A stretch of DNA of 25,668 bases from Promethearchaeota archaeon (GCA_019894975.1 JAGXNO010000047.1:1-25668); one strand, 5' to 3'; counted from the stretch's first letter, positions 5,936 through 25,668 are shown. Notes: generated by a model not told the origin, from the sequence alone. Made by a program: numbers and translations.

Positions 5936-7603
5936 ATGTCTGAAGAAGAAACTAGAATTGGTGTTTTTATTTGTCATTGTGGTACTAATATCGGTGGTGT
6001 TTTGGATATTCCTGAGTTAGAGAAATATGCCAAAACTTTACCAAATGTCGTATATAGCGGCGCTAACTTATATACATGTTCGGAAGTTGGATTAACTGAA
6101 ATCAGAGATAATATTAAGGAACATAATTTAAATCGAGTCATTGTAGCATCATGTTCTCCTCGAACTCATGAACCGTTATTTAGATCAACTTGTCAAGAAG
6201 TAGGTTTAAATCCCTATTTATTTGAAATGGTAAACATTAGAGACCAAGATTCTTGGGTTCATATGAAAGAACCTGAAAAAGGCACCGAAAAGGCTAAAGA
6301 TCTTATTAGAATGGGTGTTTATAAGGCTGCTTTATTAGAATCATTAGAAAAAATAAAGGTTGGAGTGACGCCTTCTGCTATTGTAATCGGTGGAGGGATT
6401 GCAGGGATGAATGCTGCATTAAATTTAGCAAATCAAAATTTTAAAGTAAGTTTAATAGAAAAGGAATCGGAGTTAGGTGGATTGCTCCGACAACTAAATA
6501 AAGTTTATCCTACCAATGAAGATGCTTCAAATTTATTAGAAACAAGAGAATTGGTAGAAAATCACAAAAAAATAGATATTTATAAGTCAGCTCTAATAGA
6601 AAAAATTGAAGGATACGTAGGGAACTTTAATGTAATTGTTCTCCAAGATAAAAAAAGAAATGAAATCAAAGTGGGTGCTATAATAGTTGCTACAGGTGCG
6701 AATGCTTTATCTCCAGAAGGATATTACAATTATAATGGAAAAACCATCATTAGTCAATTAGAGTTAGAGGGATTATTAAAAGATAATACAATTAATGCAC
6801 ACAATATTACGATGATCCAATGCGTTGGTTGCAGAAATGAGGAAAGAAAATATTGTTCAAATATATGTTGTATGACTGCCCTTAAAAATGCAATCCTGAT
6901 TAAAGAGCAAAAACCAGACACTAATATTACTATAATTTTTAGAGATATCCAAACTCAAGGTGTTACTTATGAAGAATATTATAGAAGAGCAAGAGAAATG
7001 GGAATAATATTTATAAAATATTTGCCAGAGAAACCTCCAATTATTAAGAAAAATCATATTGAAGTTTATAATGATTTTTTGAATCAAGTTATTGGATTTC
7101 CCTATGATCTTGTGGTATTATCTATGCCACTTATTGCTAATGAAGATTCAGAGCAATTAGCAAAATTATTGAAAGTTCCATTAGAGAAAAATGGTTTCTT
7201 TTTAGAAGCTCATGTGAAGTTAAGACCTGTAGATTTTGCTACAGATGGTGTATTTGTATGTGGCTCAGCTCATTGGCCCGCAGATATTGCAGAAAGTATA
7301 TCACAATCAAATGCAGCAGCTTCGAGAGCTAGTACGATAATCTCAAAAGAAATGATAGAAGTAGAAGGTTCTACCGCCGAAGTTAATGAAAATTTATGTG
7401 TGGGATGTGAAGCTTGTATTAAGATCTGTCCCTATAGTGCAATATCTAAAGATGAGGATACCGATACTGTTATAGTTAATAAAGTTGTTTGTAAAGGATG
7501 TGGAGTATGTGGTGCTAGTTGTCCGCACAATGCAATTATTATACACCACTTTACTAACGATCAGATACTAGCTGAAATTGCAACTTATGGAGGTGGGGAA
7601 TAA
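5936..7603 (+). CDS. hdrA: HdrA-like flavoprotein, 'half B' (N-terminal HdrA domain + FAD domain + C-terminal ferredoxin; lacks inserted ferredoxin)
   Basis: [86 protein letters not shown]. Start is either 5927 (ATGA overlap) or 5936 (GAGGGG 9 nt upstream, preferred). Confidence 0.92.
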   Translation: MSEEETRIGVFICHCGTNIGGVLDIPELEKYAKTLPNVVYSGANLYTCSEVGLTEIRDNIKEHNLNRVIVASCSPRTHEPLFRSTCQEVGLNPYLFEMVNIRDQDSWVHMKEPEKGTEKAKDLIRMGVYKAALLESLEKIKVGVTPSAIVIGGGIAGMNAALNLANQNFKVSLIEKESELGGLLRQLNKVYPTNEDASNLLETRELVENHKKIDIYKSALIEKIEGYVGNFNVIVLQDKKRNEIKVGAIIVATGANALSPEGYYNYNGKTIISQLELEGLLKDNTINAHNITMIQCVGCRNEERKYCSNICCMTALKNAILIKEQKPDTNITIIFRDIQTQGVTYEEYYRRAREMGIIFIKYLPEKPPIIKKNHIEVYNDFLNQVIGFPYDLVVLSMPLIANEDSEQLAKLLKVPLEKNGFFLEAHVKLRPVDFATDGVFVCGSAHWPADIAESISQSNAAASRASTIISKEMIEVEGSTAEVNENLCVGCEACIKICPYSAISKDEDTDTVIVNKVVCKGCGVCGASCPHNAIIIHHFTNDQILAEIATYGGGE

Positions 7604-14231: not shown

Positions 14232-14543
14232 CTAATATGGATTAGTCCATTTTTCTAAAAATTGCCCTAAGGTATTTGAATCTCTTGAAATTTCAATACT
14301 CTCAATAATTCCAATATTTCTTAACTTGATTTCCGAATTAACATAACACAATAGGGCATGTAGGGGATTCCCATGAAGATGAATGTGTGGAAAATACACA
14401 TTGGTTAATGATTTATGTTTCCTGACTACTTCTAATTCAACACCAATTTTTACTTTCTTATTACATTTAGGACATCTAACAACTCTCTCAACCGTTTTTT
14501 TAACATGGTCAACATCTTTAATTTTTCCGTAAACAATTACCAT
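14232..14543 (-). CDS. Small putative metal-binding protein (CPxC ... HxHLHGxPLH), resembles a hypothetical family common in Lokiarchaeia
   Basis: RCPKCNKKV...FPHIHLHGNPLHALLCYVN..LR; TTTAAATA 47 nt upstream. Confidence 0.8.
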   Translation of the reverse strand: MVIVYGKIKDVDHVKKTVERVVRCPKCNKKVKIGVELEVVRKHKSLTNVYFPHIHLHGNPLHALLCYVNSEIKLRNIGIIESIEISRDSNTLGQFLEKWTNPY

Positions 14544-14637
14544 GAATATCAGATTTATATAATTCTAATTATGATTTTTCAAAGTCAATTTATTTAAACA
14601 AAAAGATATGGGGTGTAATCTAAAAATAATTAAATTT

Positions 14638-14883
14638 CTAATTTTGATCATTTAAATCTTTCATTATTGAGTCAAAAAACTTTTTAGCTTTTTCTGGGTC
14701 TTTTAATTCATCAAAAGTCCCGATAAAGCTGTTCATTTCTGTAACTGCTAAAATATCTTTATCGGGTATGACTCCAATTTGCTTTTTGTCAAATTCTAAT
14801 AAGCATTCAGGACATTCAATTGAATTTGTGTATTCAATAACCTTTTTTGTCTTGCATCGCGGGCAATAAAACTTTTTAACCAT
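14638..14883 (-). CDS. Zinc-ribbon protein (81 aa), copy 1
   Basis: MVKKFYCPRC-x14-CPEC followed by an acidic helical tail; close paralog at 25449-25668. The 32-codon upstream extension in the ORF track is probably spurious. Confidence 0.85.
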   Translation of the reverse strand: MVKKFYCPRCKTKKVIEYTNSIECPECLLEFDKKQIGVIPDKDILAVTEMNSFIGTFDELKDPEKAKKFFDSIMKDLNDQN

Positions 14884-15226
14884 AACTCGTCCAAATCCAT
14901 TAAACAAGTATATGCTAACTAAAAATAAGTTCAACACACATATAAAACAATGGGTTGCGAGGATTTTCATTACACTCATACGACTAAAATAATCTAAACC
15001 TTTTTAAATAAAAATTAATACTAAACCCTTGCGTTTTTCCTTTAAAAACAACGAGCATTTATGTTTGATTCTGATAATAAAATTTTCTAAATGAGTGAAA
15101 CTATAATGAGATTTGGTTTTGAAAGATTTTGAATATGTTCATTTATTCAAAGATAAAAACTCACTAAATTTTTCTTTAAATACTTTCATTTTTGTACATT
15201 AACAAAAATAAAATTGTGATAAAAAA

Positions 15227-15481: not shown

Positions 15482-17254
15482 CTACAGAACAAGCATCTTC
15501 TCATATAAAAGGTTTAACGGTAGCGTTGAGATATATTCAGCGTCAAAGTAGCTATCCCGAATATAGGCATAAATATTATCAGATAAGTTCCTATTATTTT
15601 TAATAAGGCTATTTAGCTGAGAAGTGATAAGCCCTGTGATAAACCGCATAATTATATTGTTTATCTTCTTTATGTTGATTCCCAGCATTACATCAACTTC
15701 CGAATCGCTATATCTATCATCATGTGTAAGTTTATTCCTGAAATTATTTAACCAGAGGAGATTACTTTCCATTTTTGTGGATAGATGAAAATATGTTACC
15801 AAGGCCTTTATTTTCGGAACTATTTTCTCATTAAACTGATCTCTACCAAATATATCATTATAGAGTCTTTCTACATATTTCCTAAAAATACTTACCATTC
15901 TATACTTATCTTGGATACCAAACAAGTCAACCCACTCTTTTATTCTGACCTGTTCTAGGTTTGTATCGATTTCCTTTCTTACACGATCTCCTAATTGGTG
16001 GGTTTGAGGGAGTTTTGGTGGTGTTACGAGTTGATTTAACCGTGATATCTCCTGAAGTAGATATGAGTATAGTTCCTTGTTCTGAATAAATATTTGGTTT
16101 TTAATAGCTTTGTCTATTACACGCGATAAGGAATCCAATCGATCCAGAAGCCATCGTTTATATTCCTTCCAGTTTTTATGTAAAGAAGGTTTTTCATTCC
16201 TCATAAAAAGTTCATCAGCAAGTTTAGGTTTAGTATTCACACTGATTGGTTCGGGAGTCGAAAATTCTACGATATCTCGAGAAATCCCTAATGTGCTACA
16301 AATATCTTCGAAATCGACAATATCTTCTTCAGAAAGTTCATAGCTTGAAAGCTTCATCTCAGACCAATTCTTAATAAATGTTTCAGGGATTCCCTCCTTC
16401 CAATGCCGATTTCGTAAATAATTATACAATTTTAGAGGGCTATACAGTTCTTCTAACTGTAAATGTGAAGCGTTCACTTTTGCACTTCTATAATCATGGA
16501 TGAGTTGGATAAATTCTTTGCCTAGTGCCTTGTTTTTTGAAACTATCAGCTCATATTCATCGGAAAAATCATGGAGATCTTTCTCTCGAGATTTTACAGA
16601 AGAGGCATCAGAGGAATATTTGAGCAACTCAGAAGCGTTTGGAAGCTCTACCTGATAATATTGGCTAGTGAAATCTAAAATTTTTTGCCAATACGTTGCA
16701 TTATAATCTTTGAGATGGATGGCAATCTTCTCAGGAGAATTATTGTGATTTACTTGTTCAAAAATTTTTGAAGAGGTATTTTTTATACTTTGAATAGAGT
16801 CTTGTAGGATCGTGGTACTCGTAGCCGAGGAGATAAGCAATCTTTCAAACTCAAGATCAGTTGAAGTCTCTGGGAAGTTTAAAAATGTTCCACTTTTCTT
16901 ATTATAGAATATAAAATCTGTCCCATTTACTAATTCGGTAATATTTTCATTGCTGTTTAATATGCAGCGAACTCCCTCTAAACTCATTATTTCTTGTATT
17001 TTAGGCTTATCTAAGTTATAGATGAAATAAAGGCTGGGAGATTGGGAATATGAATTAGAAGATTCAAACTCTAAAATATTTTTGAGATCATGTAAGACGG
17101 TAGATTCCAGATCAACTACCGTATATCCTGCGGTAAAGATTTCAAGGGCATGTAGGTGCTTAAGATCAACATAAGGAAATATCACTAGGTTTTTTTGCTG
17201 AAAAAATACAATGTTTAAAAATTCCGGTGTGAAAAAATCTTCTCCTGAATCCAT
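15482..17254 (-). CDS. Multi-domain protein with C-terminal HEPN/DUF4145-like domain (putative RNase effector)
   Basis: C-terminal pattern FRKYVE...KIKAL...LLWLNNFRNKLTH (RxxxxH at 15722-15739), after Pro-rich linkers. The N-terminal ~400 aa are unrecognised. Confidence 0.7.
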   Translation of the reverse strand: MDSGEDFFTPEFLNIVFFQQKNLVIFPYVDLKHLHALEIFTAGYTVVDLESTVLHDLKNILEFESSNSYSQSPSLYFIYNLDKPKIQEIMSLEGVRCILNSNENITELVNGTDFIFYNKKSGTFLNFPETSTDLEFERLLISSATSTTILQDSIQSIKNTSSKIFEQVNHNNSPEKIAIHLKDYNATYWQKILDFTSQYYQVELPNASELLKYSSDASSVKSREKDLHDFSDEYELIVSKNKALGKEFIQLIHDYRSAKVNASHLQLEELYSPLKLYNYLRNRHWKEGIPETFIKNWSEMKLSSYELSEEDIVDFEDICSTLGISRDIVEFSTPEPISVNTKPKLADELFMRNEKPSLHKNWKEYKRWLLDRLDSLSRVIDKAIKNQIFIQNKELYSYLLQEISRLNQLVTPPKLPQTHQLGDRVRKEIDTNLEQVRIKEWVDLFGIQDKYRMVSIFRKYVERLYNDIFGRDQFNEKIVPKIKALVTYFHLSTKMESNLLWLNNFRNKLTHDDRYSDSEVDVMLGINIKKINNIIMRFITGLITSQLNSLIKNNRNLSDNIYAYIRDSYFDAEYISTLPLNLLYEKMLVL

Positions 17255-17269
17255 TTTTGATAGGAACCT

Positions 17270-17920
17270 CTATTCACTAAAATAGTTAAAAATTACCTGC
17301 AAGATTATCTGCTTAAAACATTTCACGATATTTACTCCTTGTATTGCTTCTGCGTCATATACCACCTTAGAACCGTCCGGATAGGTATCAAGCAAAGGCA
17401 GTCCTAAAGCTATCTTAAATTTACTCAATTTAATCGCGTTTTCCAAATCTCTTTTGTTCAACTGAACAATGTATGGGATTTTCTTAGGAGAGGCAAAACT
17501 TACCAGTTCCCGAAAGCTTCTTTTATTTTGTTCTAATTTTTCAGGATTCGAATCCCCAACGAATACGATCCCGTCAGCACCGTCGAGTACATATTCTCGT
17601 GTTGATAGGAAGCGTTCTTGTCCTGTACAGGTCACCACATGGGCTATAATATTGAATTTAAGATCCTTTATTGCAAACTTAAACAAAAGATAGAGAGAGT
17701 CTTCCCATAAGGTTCTTCCTTCTGTGGTTTCGATGGAATATCCGTTCGATAATTTTAGGAGATCGAATTTTTCCTTCAAACGAAAAAAGTTGGTTGTCTT
17801 TCCACTTTCCCCAGGTCCCCAGTAGACAATTTTAAACTGAAGCATATTTTCAGCGTCGTTGAAATCGAACTCACCGCTGATTTCTAACTGACTTTCCCCT
17901 TCTTTATTGTGTAATTCCAC
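17270..17920 (-). CDS. MglA-family small GTPase (GTG start)
   Basis: KIVYWGPGESGKTTN, EGRTLWED (intrinsic Arg finger region), TCTGQERF, VLDGADGIVFVGDS, QLNKRDL, EAIQG; SD GGTGGTGA upstream. Confidence 0.92.
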   Translation of the reverse strand: MELHNKEGESQLEISGEFDFNDAENMLQFKIVYWGPGESGKTTNFFRLKEKFDLLKLSNGYSIETTEGRTLWEDSLYLLFKFAIKDLKFNIIAHVVTCTGQERFLSTREYVLDGADGIVFVGDSNPEKLEQNKRSFRELVSFASPKKIPYIVQLNKRDLENAIKLSKFKIALGLPLLDTYPDGSKVVYDAEAIQGVNIVKCFKQIILQVIFNYFSE

Positions 17921-17942
17921 TTTGGTTTCACCACCTGGCGAA

Positions 17943-18491
17943 TTAACTAATCTGCCCGAGTTTATCCGAAAAAATTTCTTTCTTTAACTCTTTAATGTGG
18001 TCTTTGATCTCTTTTTCCGTCATTTTCATGGTTCTTTGGGCTGCTTGATTGTTCTCGATTTCTTTTCTGATTTTTATCGCAAAATTGCTTAACTGGAGAA
18101 AGATGACGCCTAAATTGACATCGTTATCAGTTAACATTACGATTAAGATGTCTCGTTTCCCCTTCTTTTGGAGCTCTACTTTTCCGACTGACTTCACGAA
18201 TAACCGCATGTCATTATAGATTAATGTCGCCCTTTCTAATGATTCCGATTCGAAGAAATCTTGTCCTTGCCGTGCAACTCCATAGAGGGCAGCACCAATT
18301 GAACTTAGATCCCAATAATTTAACTTGCGATCAAAACGAGAATCGACCGCAATAATTTTAGCGTCTTGATCAATTGCAATGATACCATAGATATACCCTT
18401 TACGAACCAGTTGCCCGTGGTTATACCGTATCTCATCCAACACATCGGTTATGCTATTTTTATACAAAATTTTTGGTATGTGATTTATCAT
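17943..18491 (-). CDS. Roadblock/LC7 (MglB-like) protein with C-terminal helical extension
   Basis: Helix-IIAIDQDAKIIA-helix(LSSIGAALYGVA)-strands-VNLGVI-helix pattern; 22 nt upstream of the MglA gene. Confidence 0.85.
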   Translation of the reverse strand: MINHIPKILYKNSITDVLDEIRYNHGQLVRKGYIYGIIAIDQDAKIIAVDSRFDRKLNYWDLSSIGAALYGVARQGQDFFESESLERATLIYNDMRLFVKSVGKVELQKKGKRDILIVMLTDNDVNLGVIFLQLSNFAIKIRKEIENNQAAQRTMKMTEKEIKDHIKELKKEIFSDKLGQIS

Positions 18492-18551
18492 TTTTTTGCT
18501 TCTACTTTAATTTTTATGAGAAGATAGGGTGGAAGATATTTAAAGAAAAAA

Positions 18552-19181
18552 TTAATTAAGAATTCTTAGGCTTTTAATAATTCTTAAGAAAAAATAATTG
18601 TCTTGAGTAATTCTGCTCTTCTCTTGTCTAATATTTTCTTTAGGAAGAAAAATGGTTCCTGCTGATTCTCTCTTTGGATAACAAAGAACCCCATCTCTTT
18701 TAACAAATGATTTAACATCTTTGGTTTGTTGAATAACTATAAAAATGCAAGTGCGGTTAATCCCTTTTTCATCCGTTAAATTCACATCAACTATTTCAAA
18801 AACTTTGTTGTATTTTCGAATATTTGTCCGAAGAATCTCATGTAATTCTTTTTTTTTATTCTCAACATCCTCAAGTCCTACAATCTTCCTAGGTAAAATA
18901 TCTGTTATTCCGATCATCAGTACTCCACCTCTTTCGTTGGCAAAAGAGCAAACGTCCTTGCATACCTCTAGCTTGCTTTGCTTAATATTTCTCCTATTTG
19001 GAGTCCACCAATTATAAGTTCTTTTAAAATCAAAATAAACTCTCTCCTTCTTATTTGACACATTTTTAACAAACTTCTCCCAGAAGACATTACTCTGAAT
19101 AACTGATAGCCATCTTGCGGTTTCTTCTTTAGAATATTGAACTTCTTTTTTGTGCAATCTGAAATATTTTAAAGTCTTCAT
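18552..19181 (-). CDS. Schlafen/AlbA_2 domain protein; reading frame open a further 52 codons upstream (to 19337)
   Basis: ERVYFDFK...EVCKDVCSFANERGGVLMIGITD..RKIVGL...YPKR is the AlbA_2 signature. Confidence 0.85.
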   Translation of the reverse strand: MKTLKYFRLHKKEVQYSKEETARWLSVIQSNVFWEKFVKNVSNKKERVYFDFKRTYNWWTPNRRNIKQSKLEVCKDVCSFANERGGVLMIGITDILPRKIVGLEDVENKKKELHEILRTNIRKYNKVFEIVDVNLTDEKGINRTCIFIVIQQTKDVKSFVKRDGVLCYPKRESAGTIFLPKENIRQEKSRITQDNYFFLRIIKSLRILN

Positions 19182-19367
19182 TTTGCCTAGATCACTTAGG
19201 AAATTATTTCTTAATTCTGAAAGAGTGTGAAAAGCTCCAAAAATCTTCTCACCGGTAATAATATCAAATTCTTCTTTATCAACGATATAGTCTATGGCTT
19301 CTAAATAACCATCGATAATAACATTGTTGAGCAGAAATTAATCTAAGAGAAAAAAAATTAAAAAAAA

Positions 19368-20558
19368 TTATTTAACTCGTCTCTCAAATACCACATGAGT
19401 CCTGTTTGGGCGACAATGAGGAAATATAGAATTTACCGCTTCCTCGTTATTTACTCCTTTGGAATTTTTCGTCCAGATGGCAGTTCCTTCGAAATATTTT
19501 ATTCCCCACATGGAGCGATTGGTGGCCTGACCAAAATTGTTTAGTGAAGAAAACACTCCTTTTCCATTATATCCTGTTCTTACCATTGCGGTATGCACAT
19601 TCACTCGGGTGACGTACTCAGAATTCCAACATTCGTAATAATCGAGTACTCCGATTAAGATCCCAATAAGTCTATTTGTCTTTCGTTCCAGAACCATTGG
19701 AAACATCGTGACCATATTTTCCAGATCCGCATCCTTCCATGCCTCGATAAATTCAGGAACATCTTTATATGCATCGAAAGGATCATAGACTTGCTCGTAT
19801 CTGAAAAACTGTTTTGGTACATGCGTGGCAAGATGTAATAACTCTTCCACGTTTTCTCTACCTCCTCCCGACGTATCTGGAAGTAAAGAGCTAAAGGAAT
19901 CTCCTGCAAGTTCTACTATTTCATCTAATTTTTCCTCAACCTCGTCCACGGGAAGACAGCACAGTTTAAGGTTCTTGTCCAACGAGTTTCCTTTTTTCCA
20001 TGATTCCTCTACCACACTCATGCAGGTATATTCAGATTCAGGTTCATATCCTAAATTTACAAGATATTCGTAAATCTCAGCATTTTCATTACTGGGAGCG
20101 ACGCCATACAATTTTTGTTCCTCATTACCTGTAACTTGTAATCCAAATCCCATTTCGTTTTTAGGAAAATTAATTGGTCCGCGAATCTTACGTAGCCTAT
20201 TTTCTTTTACAAATAGTTCACATTGAGTCAGAAGAATCTCACATATTTCCTGACTTTGAGCAATTAACCAACCAAAGGTTCCACATTTTCTTCCATAACT
20301 CTTATATTCAGGATTTAGATCAGATATTACCATGCCACAAGGCATATCATTGTAATAAGCGATAAATACCTTAATTCTATAACTTGAAGTTTGAAATTTA
20401 CTCTTCAAATAGACCAAAAGGCTTTTAATGATATTGTCTTTTATGTGGGAATTATGTTGCTGGAGTAATTCTCCTAACACTTCCTTTATCTCTTCTAAGT
20501 CCTGAATATCACTTATTTTAATATAGTTCTTTTGTATTTCTTGAACGGTTTGAACCAT
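19368..20558 (-). CDS. Tandem-GNAT acyltransferase, YghO/bacterial ceramide synthase (bCerS)-like
   Basis: GTFGW..., CELFVKENRLRKIRGPINF...GLQVTG...YEYLVNLGY; second GNAT motif AMVRTGYNGKGV and late NNEEAVN. Confidence 0.7.
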   Translation of the reverse strand: MVQTVQEIQKNYIKISDIQDLEEIKEVLGELLQQHNSHIKDNIIKSLLVYLKSKFQTSSYRIKVFIAYYNDMPCGMVISDLNPEYKSYGRKCGTFGWLIAQSQEICEILLTQCELFVKENRLRKIRGPINFPKNEMGFGLQVTGNEEQKLYGVAPSNENAEIYEYLVNLGYEPESEYTCMSVVEESWKKGNSLDKNLKLCCLPVDEVEEKLDEIVELAGDSFSSLLPDTSGGGRENVEELLHLATHVPKQFFRYEQVYDPFDAYKDVPEFIEAWKDADLENMVTMFPMVLERKTNRLIGILIGVLDYYECWNSEYVTRVNVHTAMVRTGYNGKGVFSSLNNFGQATNRSMWGIKYFEGTAIWTKNSKGVNNEEAVNSIFPHCRPNRTHVVFERRVK

Positions 20559-20636
20559 TGTTTATTCAATCTCAAGTTAGTATTTTTTATTATACTTTTT
20601 CTAGCTAGTACTATATAAAGAAAAAATGGGAAAAGA

Positions 20637-21890
20637 TCATACCACTATGTTAATTATCGGAATTTTTACAACTGCTTCTTGTGCTACCTTTTCTTTTTTA
20701 TAATAAAAGTAAGGTAAAATCCAAAAGACTGAGCCGGCTAACCAAATCGACAAGACCACAGTGATCGAAATCGAGATCATACCAATATTTCCGTGAATAA
20801 GAGAAGATATTAGGGTATTGCCTACAATCCCTCCGAGATTAATCATGATTCCATTAAGTCCGTTTACTGTACTTTTAAGATTAGGAGAAACAACATCCAC
20901 ACAGAGCGCAAATTGATTACCGGTACTGAAGAAGACAAAAAAGTATCCGAACATCCCAAATAAGATAAAAGGATAACTGTAGAATAGGAGTAATAAGGAT
21001 GCACCGAGAATAACGCCTATAATTGAGACATAGATCCTTCCTTCTTTAGAGCGTTTACTAAGAATGTCTCCCAGCATCCCACCCATGACAGCGCCTAGAA
21101 GTGCGCCTACCCCTGCAATTGTATAGAGTAAAATAGCAGATGATTTACTTCCTAATCGAAGGGATAGATGAAAGATTGCCCAATAAGAAATTACTGAAGT
21201 TGCAATCCCCGAACAGAATACAAACAAAAGAATGCCTACTACTGTTTTAGTTTTCACTAACTCGCGGATATCATTATATGATATTTTATACCTATTTTTT
21301 TCCGAGGAGTTCACGTGTCTTTCTTTCCGTAACGGTTTAGTACTAAAATACATAAACCTAAATAAAGTAAGTATCCCTAAGATTGAGCCGATTGCAAAAC
21401 TTATTCTCCATCCTAATACCCCTCCGAGAATAATACCTACACCATTTCCTAAGAATTGACCAACCATCATACTTCCAAACTTTACACCTCTTTGTTCCGG
21501 TTCGTATAAGTCTCCTATAATTGAAAATCCTATGGGAAGAAATGCCCCATTCCCCGTCGCCCCTATGATAATGAAAAGCAAAAATATTGTATAGGTGGGA
21601 GCAAATCCTATAAAACCATAAGGGATTATCCAAAGTAAATTAGTGGCCAAGAACAGTTTCTTACGGGTAAATTTTTCTGAAAGATACTCACTAAAATACC
21701 CAAAGACAAGCATACTGATAGTACTCGTAATTAAGGCACTTACTAACACAATTCCGATCCCGAATTGAGCAAGATCATTAAAATCGGTCATTAAGGTATC
21801 GATATTGGCAGGAATCGTCCCCAAGCAAAAGTAGATGCAAAAGTAAAAAGAAAGGATGAGTTGAAAGGTGGTATTTTTTTGAGATTTCAT
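20637..21890 (-). CDS. MFS transporter (417 aa from the ATG at 21890)
   Basis: About 12 hydrophobic segments; motif-A variants GYFSEYLSEKFTRKK and GMLGDILSKR; IIGDLYEPEQRG, GWRISF; SD AAGGTG before 21890. Confidence 0.92.
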   Translation of the reverse strand: MKSQKNTTFQLILSFYFCIYFCLGTIPANIDTLMTDFNDLAQFGIGIVLVSALITSTISMLVFGYFSEYLSEKFTRKKLFLATNLLWIIPYGFIGFAPTYTIFLLFIIIGATGNGAFLPIGFSIIGDLYEPEQRGVKFGSMMVGQFLGNGVGIILGGVLGWRISFAIGSILGILTLFRFMYFSTKPLRKERHVNSSEKNRYKISYNDIRELVKTKTVVGILLFVFCSGIATSVISYWAIFHLSLRLGSKSSAILLYTIAGVGALLGAVMGGMLGDILSKRSKEGRIYVSIIGVILGASLLLLFYSYPFILFGMFGYFFVFFSTGNQFALCVDVVSPNLKSTVNGLNGIMINLGGIVGNTLISSLIHGNIGMISISITVVLSIWLAGSVFWILPYFYYKKEKVAQEAVVKIPIINIVV

Positions 21891-21900
21891 GTAAAACACC

Positions 21901-22134
21901 TTATTCAAAAACAATAGGACATACTGGTTTCTTAAAGAATTCAAAAAGCTTAAAATTTACACTAGGTGAACAGTTGCCTTTCCTTTCAGCTAAAGGATTG
22001 ACACAGTTCCACTCATAACGGCTTCTATCAGGAGAAAATACTACCCCAAAAGGCATTGATGCGTGAGTACATATGAAGACATGATTTCTTCCTGATGGAA
22101 CTTCTTTTCTACATGTAGGGCACTCTAATGACAT
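21901..22134 (-). CDS. Small Cys/His-rich putative metal-binding protein (77 aa)
   Basis: MSLECPTC...HVFICTH...C...C...C; ends 10 nt before the MFS start; TATA-like element 44 nt upstream. Confidence 0.65.
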   Translation of the reverse strand: MSLECPTCRKEVPSGRNHVFICTHASMPFGVVFSPDRSRYEWNCVNPLAERKGNCSPSVNFKLFEFFKKPVCPIVFE

Positions 22135-22209: not shown

Positions 22210-22797
22210 TTAAGGATAAAAATTTTTACTTCCGATCCCAATTTTATTTCGAGTCCTATGAAACGCATAGGCACTACAATTACAAAGCAATCGTAAGTTA
22301 GCCTGAATAATATTTTTCTCGGTGGATTGATCATTAATATCTGTCACAAACAGTACGACCGCAAGCTGGGTGGTAAATTGAGGTAAGAAACATCGTTTAT
22401 CAAGAATATTTTTCAAAATTCTTGCATTCTCTCTGGCTCGAGAAAAACTGAACACAGGTACCAGTCGATGAAGCCTATGAAGGTAGATCCTTAATTTTCT
22501 AAGGCTTTTCGTATAATCATAAGTAAATTTGTGGGAGCGAAGGAACCTTCTAAAATAGACAAAATTAACCAAAAATCTGGTAATTATAGTACGAACCAGG
22601 TTATACGGAAGTCTCACTATAGAGGCTACCCGCCTCATTTCGGATTCAGGAACCGCCCTAATCTTTTCAAAATCCTCAACAAAACAAATCTCACGACAAA
22701 GGCAATTAAGGACGGCGCTTTCCACTTCTCTCCGAGTTGTATGTAACTCAGATATTGGAGTAATCCACGTATGGTCTTTTTTTATTATTTGCGTCAT
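22210..22797 (-). CDS. Basic helical protein with C-terminal TFIIB/cyclin-box-like repeat
   Basis: PQFTTQLAVVLFVTD...IIQANLRLLCNCSAYAFHRTRNKI resembles the TFB repeat P..LAAA.LY.A...TQ..IA....VS..TIR.R...L. Confidence 0.55.
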   Translation of the reverse strand: MTQIIKKDHTWITPISELHTTRREVESAVLNCLCREICFVEDFEKIRAVPESEMRRVASIVRLPYNLVRTIITRFLVNFVYFRRFLRSHKFTYDYTKSLRKLRIYLHRLHRLVPVFSFSRARENARILKNILDKRCFLPQFTTQLAVVLFVTDINDQSTEKNIIQANLRLLCNCSAYAFHRTRNKIGIGSKNFYP

Positions 22798-22889
22798 AAC
22801 AATTGGGAAAAATATAATTAAATCTAAATATCTTTACAACTCATTCTATTTAAATAAAAAATAGTATAACGGTGTAACATTATATTTTT

Positions 22890-23981
22890 TTAGAATTTGA
22901 GTATGGCTTTCTGAACCCGTTTAGGGTTTTGTGGCAACCTGAGAAAGTAAGCCCTACACTGTTTGTAATTATACACTACCTTTTCAAGATTATTTTCCAC
23001 TCGTTCTTTATTGAGATGGTGGTCATTACATAATAAATCCATTACACGAGGTTTTAAGGGAAAGTTCCAATAAAAATCTTGATCTGAGGTATTTACATCT
23101 GGAAATAAAAATATTCTCCTAATTTTTTTAATAAGTTCAGGAGTAAGTTTATTAAAATCATATTTTTTTTTCTCTTGGATAAGAACTTTTTCTATCTGTT
23201 TGTATTTTTGTATATAGGTTAAAGCTTTTTTAGGCCCAATTCCTTTTATCCCTGAAAAATAATCAGTTCCGATCATTAACCCCATATCGACCAGTTGAAA
23301 TTGACTGATTCCTAATCTCTTTAGGTTTTTTCGCAAGTTAATACGAAAAGGAGTTATCTTGGTGTAACTCCATTTTCCCTGCACTTTCCTCCGAAGCGAT
23401 TTAGAAAGATTCTGTATTATTCGAGGGCAACCGAACAACAATGAATCAAAATCTTGGGAATTGGAATAACGAGCAATTTTTTGTCTCACTAAATAGGCAC
23501 ATTGCGATTCTGCCGAGGCAGGAGAGTCTATGCAGGGTACTCCTAACGCACTAAGCAGTTCTTTCGATTCTTTGATTATGTTTTGCCATAGATATTCTTT
23601 ACTTAAGGCTATTTGTCGCGCACTCTCTTTGTCTCCACTTGAAATTGCCTGCTCATACAATTGCTGAGTAAACCGAAAATCATTGAGTCGATCCTTAGTA
23701 ATCAATTTTTTTAGTTCAGAATCCCTTCCATCAAAGCAAAAAATGGGAAATATTCTTTTGGTATAATATAATTTCACCCGATATAATAGACCATAGAGAT
23801 GTGAAATCGGTCTTTGGGTTCTGTCTAATATCAAACCGGCATAATTTCCATCGTGATCCTTCCGTGCGAAATTAAACAGCCCCATAATAATATTAGGAGC
23901 GTCGACAGCAATAATCTTACCCGATAAATCACTGAAGCCAATAACTTCCCGTTCAATGATATTTTGAAGTTTAACTCCCAT
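22890..23981 (-). CDS. fen: Flap endonuclease-1 family nuclease, divergent
   Basis: MGV, GKIIAVDA, ISHLYGLLYR, FCFDG, AESQCAY, SQDFDSLLFG, IGTDY..GIKGIGPKKA (H3TH), degenerate C-terminal PIP box QKAILKF. Confidence 0.92.
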   Translation of the reverse strand: MGVKLQNIIEREVIGFSDLSGKIIAVDAPNIIMGLFNFARKDHDGNYAGLILDRTQRPISHLYGLLYRVKLYYTKRIFPIFCFDGRDSELKKLITKDRLNDFRFTQQLYEQAISSGDKESARQIALSKEYLWQNIIKESKELLSALGVPCIDSPASAESQCAYLVRQKIARYSNSQDFDSLLFGCPRIIQNLSKSLRRKVQGKWSYTKITPFRINLRKNLKRLGISQFQLVDMGLMIGTDYFSGIKGIGPKKALTYIQKYKQIEKVLIQEKKKYDFNKLTPELIKKIRRIFLFPDVNTSDQDFYWNFPLKPRVMDLLCNDHHLNKERVENNLEKVVYNYKQCRAYFLRLPQNPKRVQKAILKF

Positions 23982-25448: not shown

Positions 25449-25668
25449 TTAGCAATCATCTTCTAAGTCATCCATTATCGAATCGAAAAATCGCTTGGCA
25501 GTCTTAGGATCTTTTAGCTCTTCGAAGCCGTCTATAAATGCACCTGTCTCTCCAAAGGTTAAAATCTCATCGTCAGGGATTACACCAATGTGCCTTTTAT
25601 CAAACTCTAATAAACATTTAGGGCACTCGATTGAATCGGGATATTCAATTACTTCTGTTGCCTTACAT
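25449..25668 (-). CDS. Zinc-ribbon protein, copy 2 (5' truncated by window edge; absent from the ORF track)
   Basis: CKATEVIEYPDSIECPKCLLEFDKRHIGVIPDDEILTFGETGAFIDGFEELKDPKTAKRFFDSIMDDLEDDC*; 46 of 72 residues identical, ungapped, to 14638-14883 by manual alignment. Confidence 0.88.
   Translation of the reverse strand, partial: CKATEVIEYPDSIECPKCLLEFDKRHIGVIPDDEILTFGETGAFIDGFEELKDPKTAKRFFDSIMDDLEDDC

Follow-up and report, generated by a model that had tools for sequence, protein, structure and literature searches.

An Asgard archaeal operon encoding a roadblock protein, an MglA-family GTPase and a partner protein with a predicted HEPN domain

The DNA analysed here is a stretch of 25,668 nucleotides (nt) from a Promethearchaeota archaeon (GCA_019894975.1 JAGXNO010000047.1:1-25668), called the window below. 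The subject of this report is a group of three genes within it that encode, in this order, a roadblock-type protein of 182 amino acids (aa), a small GTPase of 216 aa and a 590-aa protein, which we refer to as the partner. The group quite possibly represents a conserved switch of one order of Asgard archaea, built from roadblock protein, MglA-type GTPase and partner, with a HEPN domain as its output in this genome. The open reading frames (ORFs) of these genes and of an AlbA_2 gene upstream were all found on the minus strand, at the positions given in an earlier interpretation made from the nucleotide sequence alone (the sequence-only reading). They are listed with the other features in Table 1. 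The intergenic gaps are 15 nt between the GTPase and partner genes, 22 nt between the roadblock and GTPase genes and 60 nt between the AlbA_2 and roadblock genes, and the Shine-Dalgarno-like motifs GGTGGTGA and GAGGT stand ahead of the last two genes of the trio, so that the tight, co-oriented packing claimed earlier was confirmed by the ORFs and spacers. Since the roadblock gene is preceded at about 45 nt by a TATA-box-like element of its own, the trio probably has its own promoter, and the resemblance of this element to the consensus makes it the likely promoter of a three-gene operon. T-rich elements of the TTTAAATA type occur at about the same distance upstream of two nearby genes described below, o195 and zn103. 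No exact promoter word is common to the genes of the cluster; upstream of them no shared 9-mer was found, only generic T-rich TTTAAATA elements.

Table 1. Features of the three-gene locus in the window (positions counted from the first nucleotide).
Feature	Position	Strand	Basis
Partner protein gene, 590 aa	15482-17254	-	ORF
HEPN-fold domain (predicted), partner aa 431-550	15605-15964	-	VIA-align, Foldseek, family profile
RNKLTH, putative catalytic Rx4H motif (R506, H511)	15722-15739	-	translation
Invariant N503	15746-15748	-	translation
Helical hairpin linker, partner ~aa 355-420	15995-16192	-	model helices 13-36 and 44-61 of the C-terminal model
N-terminal module, partner aa 1-330	16265-17254	-	AlphaFold model of aa 1-345, predicted local distance difference test score (pLDDT) 80.5
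MglA-family small GTPase gene, 216 aa, GTG start	17270-17920	-	ORF, Pfam, phmmer
MglB-like roadblock/LC7-superfamily gene, 182 aa	17943-18491	-	ORF, hhalign
TTTAAATA, TATA-box-like element	18537-18544	-	in the 60-nt spacer, ~45 nt before the roadblock ATG
AlbA_2 gene, 209 aa	18552-19181	-	PF04326, E 5.6e-13

Judged by its sequence, the 216-aa protein is clearly an MglA-family GTPase in which all catalytic motifs of MglA are kept. Pfam assigned it to Arf (E 8.3e-9). In a phmmer search of the PDB the MglA chains scored between 1.2e-21 and 9e-21, with Thermus thermophilus MglA (3t12_A) at 1.2e-21 and Myxococcus xanthus MglA at about 8e-21, compared with 4e-5 for the best Arf and 3.4e-4 for Thor-Rab. 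The P-loop GPGESGKT, the switch-I pair R69-T70, the motif T99-x-x-G-Q101 (TCTGQ) and NKRD are invariant in 15 GTPase orthologues. In the alignment with T. thermophilus MglA, EGRTLWED stands opposite DERTLFFD and TCTGQ opposite TVPGQ. The Arg-Thr pair of switch I is the intrinsic arginine finger of MglA, and the G3 motif TxxGQ has Thr where Asp is usual, together with the catalytic Gln. The invariance of these motifs and the best match to MglA bear out the earlier description of an MglA GTPase with intact G1, Arg, Gln and NKxD. A close MglA-type paralogue (E 9e-76 to the family profile) was seen fused behind a complete transcription factor B (TFB) in a single 508-aa ORF (L056:3195-4718, minus strand, G170:C7), the TFB part consisting of a TFIIB zinc ribbon and two cyclin repeats. 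The fusion occurs in two genomes of the window's family, the second as a 529-aa ORF at G173:C271:4869-5477. It is unusual for a transcription initiation factor to be joined to a small GTPase.

The 182-aa protein is accepted as a probable divergent member of the roadblock superfamily with extensions at both termini. It had no match in Pfam or NCBIfam, and the roadblock profile, when searched against PDB sequences, produced chance helical matches only. Comparison of its family profile by hhalign with 12 PF03259 proteins of the same genome placed a roadblock core at aa 29-143 (probability 92%, E 6.4e-7, 104 columns), and the core is followed by a helical C-terminal extension. Homologues carry the names roadblock, LC7 or MglB at JGI and NCBI, and the language-model neighbours of the protein (Atlas feature neighbours) bear Robl_LC7 or MAPKK1_Int. 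These three lines uphold the call of an MglB-like roadblock protein. The pair thus resembles the MglA-MglB polarity switch of M. xanthus and T. thermophilus (PDB 3T12 and 3T1Q, structures reportedly from Miertzschke et al. 2011) in the P-loop, the switch-I Arg, TxxGQ and NKxD, and in a roadblock gene immediately upstream of the GTPase gene. It differs from that switch in being archaeal, in the linkage of a third protein with an RNase tail and in the lack of a RomR/RomX or motility context, and, unlike MglB, the roadblock protein has diverged beyond the reach of Pfam and is extended at its N- and C-termini.

The three genes are inherited together, almost contiguous and co-oriented. A first set of 16 loci showed the order roadblock, GTPase, partner without exception, and so did 22 of the 24 loci of a second set, which came from at least eight genera; of the remaining two, one had a GTPase below the identity filter and one was rearranged. 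The roadblock gene lay upstream of the GTPase gene in 16 of 16 and 23 of 24 loci. Taken together, 38 of 40 loci have the N-terminal module of the partner (N module) behind the roadblock and GTPase genes, in agreement with the suggestion of the sequence-only reading that homologues of the 590-aa protein would be linked to mglBA. The source genome has a single copy of the N module, and its chromosomal position is fixed. Of the 134 genomes of the window's family in the GTDB, 94 contain the module, compared with none of 266 genomes from elsewhere in the phylum, and a search of 1.84 billion cluster representatives with a hidden Markov model (HMM) of the module returned only 120 proteins. The family is thus one GTDB family with divergent relatives in the same order of Asgard archaea, and the names given by depositors to the metagenome-assembled genomes (Promethearchaeota, Thor-, Hermod-, Odin- and Hodarchaeota) are broader than this placement suggests. 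The genomes with the module also have MglA orthologues, which extend further to two sister families and to one family in another class.

Five genomes of the family were without the partner. Three of them, 94-99% complete, were also without a GTPase orthologue, one had a contig break, and one encodes the GTPase with a longin-like protein of 304 aa. In the last case, from the window's own genus (L045:502-2151, G222:C48), an MglA orthologue of 72% identity is preceded directly by an OB-fold (oligonucleotide/oligosaccharide-binding) gene and followed by the 304-aa protein, whose N-terminus is longin/roadblock-like, and neither a roadblock gene nor the usual partner is present. A sister family (f3) has a divergent partner homologue (hhalign probability 96.6%, E 6e-10, 290 columns) beside the roadblock-GTPase pair, and therefore the triad is older than the window's family. 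The gene order in f3 is permuted, with the divergent partner directly upstream of the roadblock-GTPase pair and not downstream; at two such loci (L052:4071-6835 and L051:4079-6749) the homologue has 515 or 495 aa and no RNase motif. Three distant homologues (P0336, P0341 and P0328) are uninformative on linkage, since their contigs are short or show no GTPase neighbour.

The 590-aa partner as a whole gave nothing significant in Pfam, NCBIfam or PADLOC. Structural modelling supports a HEPN fold with an intact RNxxxH motif at its C-terminus. The model of aa 350-590 (pLDDT 82) shows a helical hairpin, a Pro-rich disordered stretch (low pLDDT at model residues 64-70) and then a helical bundle. When this model was compared by VIA-align with 48,161 chains, the top seven were all HEPN proteins, aligned over 103-118 residues of aa 431-550 with a root-mean-square deviation (rmsd) of 2.9-4.2 and Z-scores of 8.8-10.4, values that lie under the caution line of about 13 for helical bundles, yet all from one family. 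They were 5yep_B (Z 10.4), 7ae2_A (9.9), 1ylm_B (9.8), 8xdj_A (9.7), 1wwp_B (9.1), 1jog_A (8.9) and 2hsb_A (8.8); 5yep_B, 7ae2_A and 8xdj_A are HepT toxins, and YutE, HI0074, AF_0298 and a Thermus HEPN protein were also among the seven. Lower-ranked matches included Las1, Csm6, Csx1, Cas13b and sacsin HEPN, and Foldseek also ranked HEPN proteins first. The family profile of the domain matched the prophage defence protein HepS (9oij_A, E 0.0019) over N-x-x-R-N-K-x-x-H, aligning RNKLTH of the partner with RNKxxH of HepS, of which an H105A mutant is a deposited entry. N503, R506 and H511 are invariant in 24 homologues (20 in another alignment) that are themselves only 21-38% identical in this region. 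The HEPN-like C-terminus with R..VE...RNKLTH was thus read correctly from the sequence, as were the Pro-rich linkers ahead of it, since low-confidence Pro-rich segments at about aa 332-343 and 413-419 flank the linker hairpin. The linker itself is common to the long forms of the family, its HMM matching 100 of 106 long members.

From its fold and motif the HEPN domain is predicted to be an RNase. With the known HEPN RNases (HepT/MntA, HepS, RNase L, Ire1) it shares the four-helix fold and the conserved RNxxxH, HepS being the nearest match in sequence. It is unlike them in having no MNT antitoxin or phage-sensing domain, in being fused behind a GTPase-linked module and in being interchangeable with NYN. 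RNase L and Ire1 are sensor-coupled HEPN enzymes.

This interchange became evident when the C-terminal tails of the 199 family members with a complete N module were classified. About 93 have no tail and end shortly after the N module. A Zc3h12a-like NYN domain (PF11977) is present in 51, with the acidic residues D438, D477, D509 and D527 retained, and HEPN of the window's type in 33, of which 32 keep R[NDHSQ]x3-5H; one has a HepT-like tail (PF01934, E 1.8e-4). A third tail type with an invariant Arg and His was found in 11 proteins. Some of its members have RNxxxH and others only R-x-x-H, and it sits before the shared linker helix and not after it (alignment A5: P0046, P0049, P0064, P0086, P0091, P0093, P0103, P0241, P0254, P0319); it may be a further, partly degenerate HEPN variant. 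The proposal that homologues would carry variable C-terminal effectors therefore held, with NYN, one of several HEPN-like types or no tail at all at this end. For 80 tailed proteins, the tail type requires by parsimony at least 18 changes on the tree of the N module, a rough figure, compared with 27-31 when the labels were shuffled. Several genera have mostly short forms; in the genus of the window, tailed forms prevail. Because the tail types vary and change on the tree, and short forms dominate in several genera, the tails appear to have been added later to an older core and to have been exchanged repeatedly. The core switch predates the RNase tails and is independent of them.

The exchange of unrelated RNase folds at one position, with frequent changes on the tree, is one reason to consider an abortive-infection-like defence or toxin system, as the sequence-only reading had done. 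The GTPase pair would then sense an invader or a perturbed host process and free a non-specific RNase, with dormancy or death as the result. The patchy presence of the N module within the family and the loss of the whole triad from near-complete genomes point the same way, as does the relationship of the HEPN domain to anti-phage HepS in sequence and to HepT toxins in structure. MglA-MglB pairs have also been proposed in other candidate anti-selfish-element systems (10.64898/2026.10.19.760177). The candidate described there, like the present operon, has MglA and an MglB-like protein beside a third, effector-like protein; in its case the third component is an ABC ATPase with a winged helix-turn-helix domain, and here it is a DENN-like module with an RNase. 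We nevertheless regard a defence system as quite unlikely.

The genes around the trio are the same across genera. A co-oriented string of a zinc-ribbon gene, FEN1, o195 (of no Pfam family), an RPA-like OB-fold gene, roadblock, MglA and partner is conserved in at least eight genera, often with another zinc-ribbon gene after the partner (examples at L057-L076, L001 and L004; in the window at 22210-23981). Within 8.2 kb, 20 of 24 loci have FEN1, and 17 of 24 have the OB gene. On the other flank, AsnC and MetF are common to at least one other genus, and in another class (f21) FEN1 stands directly upstream of the roadblock-MglA pair (L053:5243-6217). No variable defence island or mobile element was seen around the operon, and PADLOC returned no match for the three operon proteins and only weak, sub-significant matches for AlbA_2. 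In the same genome pairs, identities are 74-84% for the GTPase, 75-85% for the roadblock protein, 61-70% for FEN1 and 44-60% for the partner N module. With GTPase and roadblock protein as conserved as FEN1 and a fixed position beside core genes, the locus is therefore not like a mobile defence island; it would be unusual for immune sensors to be as conserved as the sensor-side genes are here. An effector is missing from about half of the family, and an antitoxin-like partner is not evident. On these grounds the assignment to defence or immunity was not supported.

The AlbA_2 gene was another part of that assignment. Its identity (PF04326), its strand and its distance of 60 nt from the roadblock gene were as claimed, and its tie to the operon was not borne out. 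It belongs to an insertion of about 3.4 kb between o195 and the roadblock gene (window 18552-21944) that also holds a 396-aa gene and a major facilitator superfamily gene. In most relatives this slot is empty or occupied by an RPA-like OB-fold gene (compare L004:2987-4297 and L001:1802-4285), and no AlbA_2 homologue was found in 39 other loci. The only other conflict-type gene nearby is thus a lineage-specific insertion, and with the promoter-like element in front of the roadblock gene AlbA_2 was ruled out as a component of the system.

Paralogous small zinc-ribbon genes, of the zn113 and zn103 types, flank the cluster from FEN1 to partner in many genomes (window 14232-14979 and 25449-25667; L001:77-364 and 6781-7020; L004:182-520 and 6872-7180). 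They lie sometimes on the strand of the partner gene and sometimes convergent to it, and the ORF open at its 5' end at the end of the window is a zn113 paralogue of 64% identity.

The same neighbourhood suggests a housekeeping switch tied to DNA replication or repair together with the FEN1, RPA-like OB-fold and zinc-ribbon genes. Rather than a toxin, the RNase tail would in that case be an accessory processing activity that might, for example, clear RNA from DNA intermediates. The recurrence of the string across genera, the position of FEN1 in f21, the conservation of MglA and roadblock protein at or above that of FEN1 and the single-copy gene at its fixed position are all consistent with this, and the MglA paralogue fused to TFB hints at nucleic-acid-related roles of the GTPase family. 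Members of one family can however owe their synteny to common descent without any functional tie, and f21 amounts to one genus. A promoter-like element is also present for the roadblock gene itself, and the cluster is interrupted in the window by the 3.4-kb insertion with no decay visible. Housekeeping enzymes seldom swap unrelated catalytic folds such as NYN and HEPN or lose the catalytic domain among close relatives. HEPN enzymes moreover cut single-stranded RNA and have no obvious role beside FEN1. On balance we consider the housekeeping explanation unlikely.

The model of the N module, a conserved region of about 340 aa, shows a five-stranded alpha/beta sandwich without a P-loop (aa 1-125) and a helical domain; no Walker A motif was found in the module. 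By VIA-align, five DENN proteins superpose on aa 1 to about 205 over 163-175 residues with rmsd 3.6-4.8 A: folliculin (3v42_B, C-terminal domain; Z 9.4, 163 residues), SMCR8 (8.9), DENND10 (8.8), DENND1A bound to Rab35 (7.9) and C9orf72 (7.7). The region that had been called unrecognised thus has its best whole-module fold matches among DENN modules. It is called DENN-like with moderate confidence, because these longest structural matches come without a sequence link and AAA+ domains give similar Z-scores on aa 1-120. The Pfam DENN model had no match above its cut-off in 400 Asgard genomes, and the protein atlas gave no usable match for the N module.

The matches to AAA+ domains raise the alternative that the N module is a degenerate AAA+ domain, clamp-loader-delta-like or STAND-like, rather than DENN, which would make it a scaffold derived from a nucleoside triphosphatase with a merely genomic link to the GTPase. 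The best PDB matches by Foldseek were Vps4, clamp-loader subunits, ORC and Rif2 (E 2e-3 to 2e-2), the ESM Atlas neighbours were DNA polymerase III delta and AAA proteins (template modelling score, TM, about 0.29), and by VIA-align the STAND protein Avs5 reached Z 9.4 and RFC/Cdc6 about 8. The lack of a sequence link to DENN also leaves room for this view. These matches, however, cover the alpha/beta part only (110-125 residues) or have a TM of about 0.2 with rmsd 15-20 A, whereas the DENN matches extend into the following helices. The missing Walker A motif is a further difficulty for an AAA+ origin, and a DENN/longin-type regulator would be expected to show just such a strict link to genes for a small GTPase and a roadblock protein. 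We rate the AAA+ alternative as mildly unlikely.

Eukaryotic DENN modules work with small GTPases and roadblock or longin partners. The superposition of partner aa 1-205 on c-DENN/d-DENN of folliculin-FNIP, C9orf72-SMCR8 and DENND1/DENND10 (Z 7.7-9.4) is the likeness of the N module to these proteins; the differences are that no sequence similarity is detectable and that no longin (u-DENN) domain is fused to its N-terminus, where the model opens with the alpha/beta sandwich. A roadblock gene is present separately, two genes upstream of the partner, and by analogy the separate roadblock protein may stand in for the fused longin. We know of no eukaryotic DENN protein with an RNase domain. Proteins of 355-389 aa with sub-threshold Pfam DENN and Folliculin matches (E about 1e-4 to 1e-3) occur in another Asgard family, f5 (L036:1033-2199 and L038:1030-2094), and have no adjoining GTPase within 1.5-kb flanks. 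These probably correspond to the folliculin-like proteins reported for Asgards and by hhalign are unrelated in sequence to the partner N module.

An operon of roadblock (LAMTOR1-like), small GTPase and DENN genes has been predicted to be widespread in Asgards by Liu et al. (10.1101/2020.10.19.343400; Nature 2021), and in the text of the preprint a GEF-like (guanine nucleotide exchange factor-like) role, analogous to that of folliculin, is proposed for the DENN protein. The age of the triad, greater than that of the window's family, fits such a wide occurrence. The coupling had been presented in the sequence-only reading as one not recognised as described, which has to be qualified in view of this prediction. 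The likeness extends to three genes of the same kinds in Asgards and to a possibly DENN-like fold of the third protein, and the present operon is most likely that of Liu et al. We infer this identity and do not take it as given, because their GTPase is called Rab-like in the preprint text and ours is MglA-like. The running text of the preprint does not mention HEPN, NYN or any nuclease. In literature texts outside Fig. 5b and the tables of Liu et al., no text on HEPN or NYN tails of the third protein was found.

Taken as a conserved switch of roadblock protein, MglA-type GTPase and partner, the operon could work as follows. The roadblock protein would act on the GTPase in the manner of MglB, as a GTPase-activating protein, and so regulate GTP hydrolysis. 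The N module of the partner would bind the GTPase, or read or set its nucleotide state, as DENN modules do. The state of the GTPase might then control the dimerisation, activation or placement of the HEPN domains in a partner dimer. A HEPN active site needs two copies of the domain, and induced dimerisation is the general rule of HEPN activation, as reportedly set out by Anantharaman et al. 2013 (PMC3710099).

Several observations count against this interpretation. About half of the family is without an RNase, which for this reason is not needed for the core function. The number of tail exchanges depends on the FastTree topology, and truncated metagenomic proteins may be counted as tail-less. 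The DENN assignment derives from middling Z-scores, with AAA+, STAND and clamp-loader domains reaching similar values by VIA-align, limited to aa 1-120. Neither Pfam DENN nor Folliculin matched the N module even at E 10, and its comparison with Asgard folliculin/DENN-like proteins by hhalign gave a probability of 0.1%. The GTPase, finally, is of the MglA family and not Rab-like as in the operon of Liu et al. A complex prediction with GTPase, roadblock protein and N module scored 0.01 in a run without controls, which weighs neither for nor against binding.

As to the biological role of the conserved switch, the largest share of our expectation, somewhat under half, goes to an RNase of stress or conflict, a little over a third to nucleic-acid housekeeping with the FEN1 and RPA-like genes, and the remaining quarter to something else. 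Besides the first two, a core switch whose tail is incidental comes into consideration. A more specific proposal is that the MglA switch is coupled to RNA cleavage, through exchangeable HEPN and NYN outputs, by a prokaryotic regulator of the DENN type that has become separate from its roadblock/longin partner. We consider this proposal doubtful in its full form; if true, it would be a direct link between ancestors of the folliculin/C9orf72-type GTPase regulators and nuclease-based stress, immune or nucleic-acid-processing responses.

Membrane traffic and nutrient signalling in eukaryotes depend centrally on DENN, longin/roadblock and small-GTPase modules, and the RNase output provides an assayable handle on an archaeal roadblock/GTPase/DENN-like module, in that RNA cleavage or toxicity can be followed against the GTP state. 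If the GTPase gates the RNase, this would be a new control of HEPN and NYN nucleases, and relatives of trafficking regulators would turn out to have an unexpected function. Otherwise the operon would still be a well-delimited, lineage-specific Asgard switch whose link to FEN1 and RPA-like genes is of interest.

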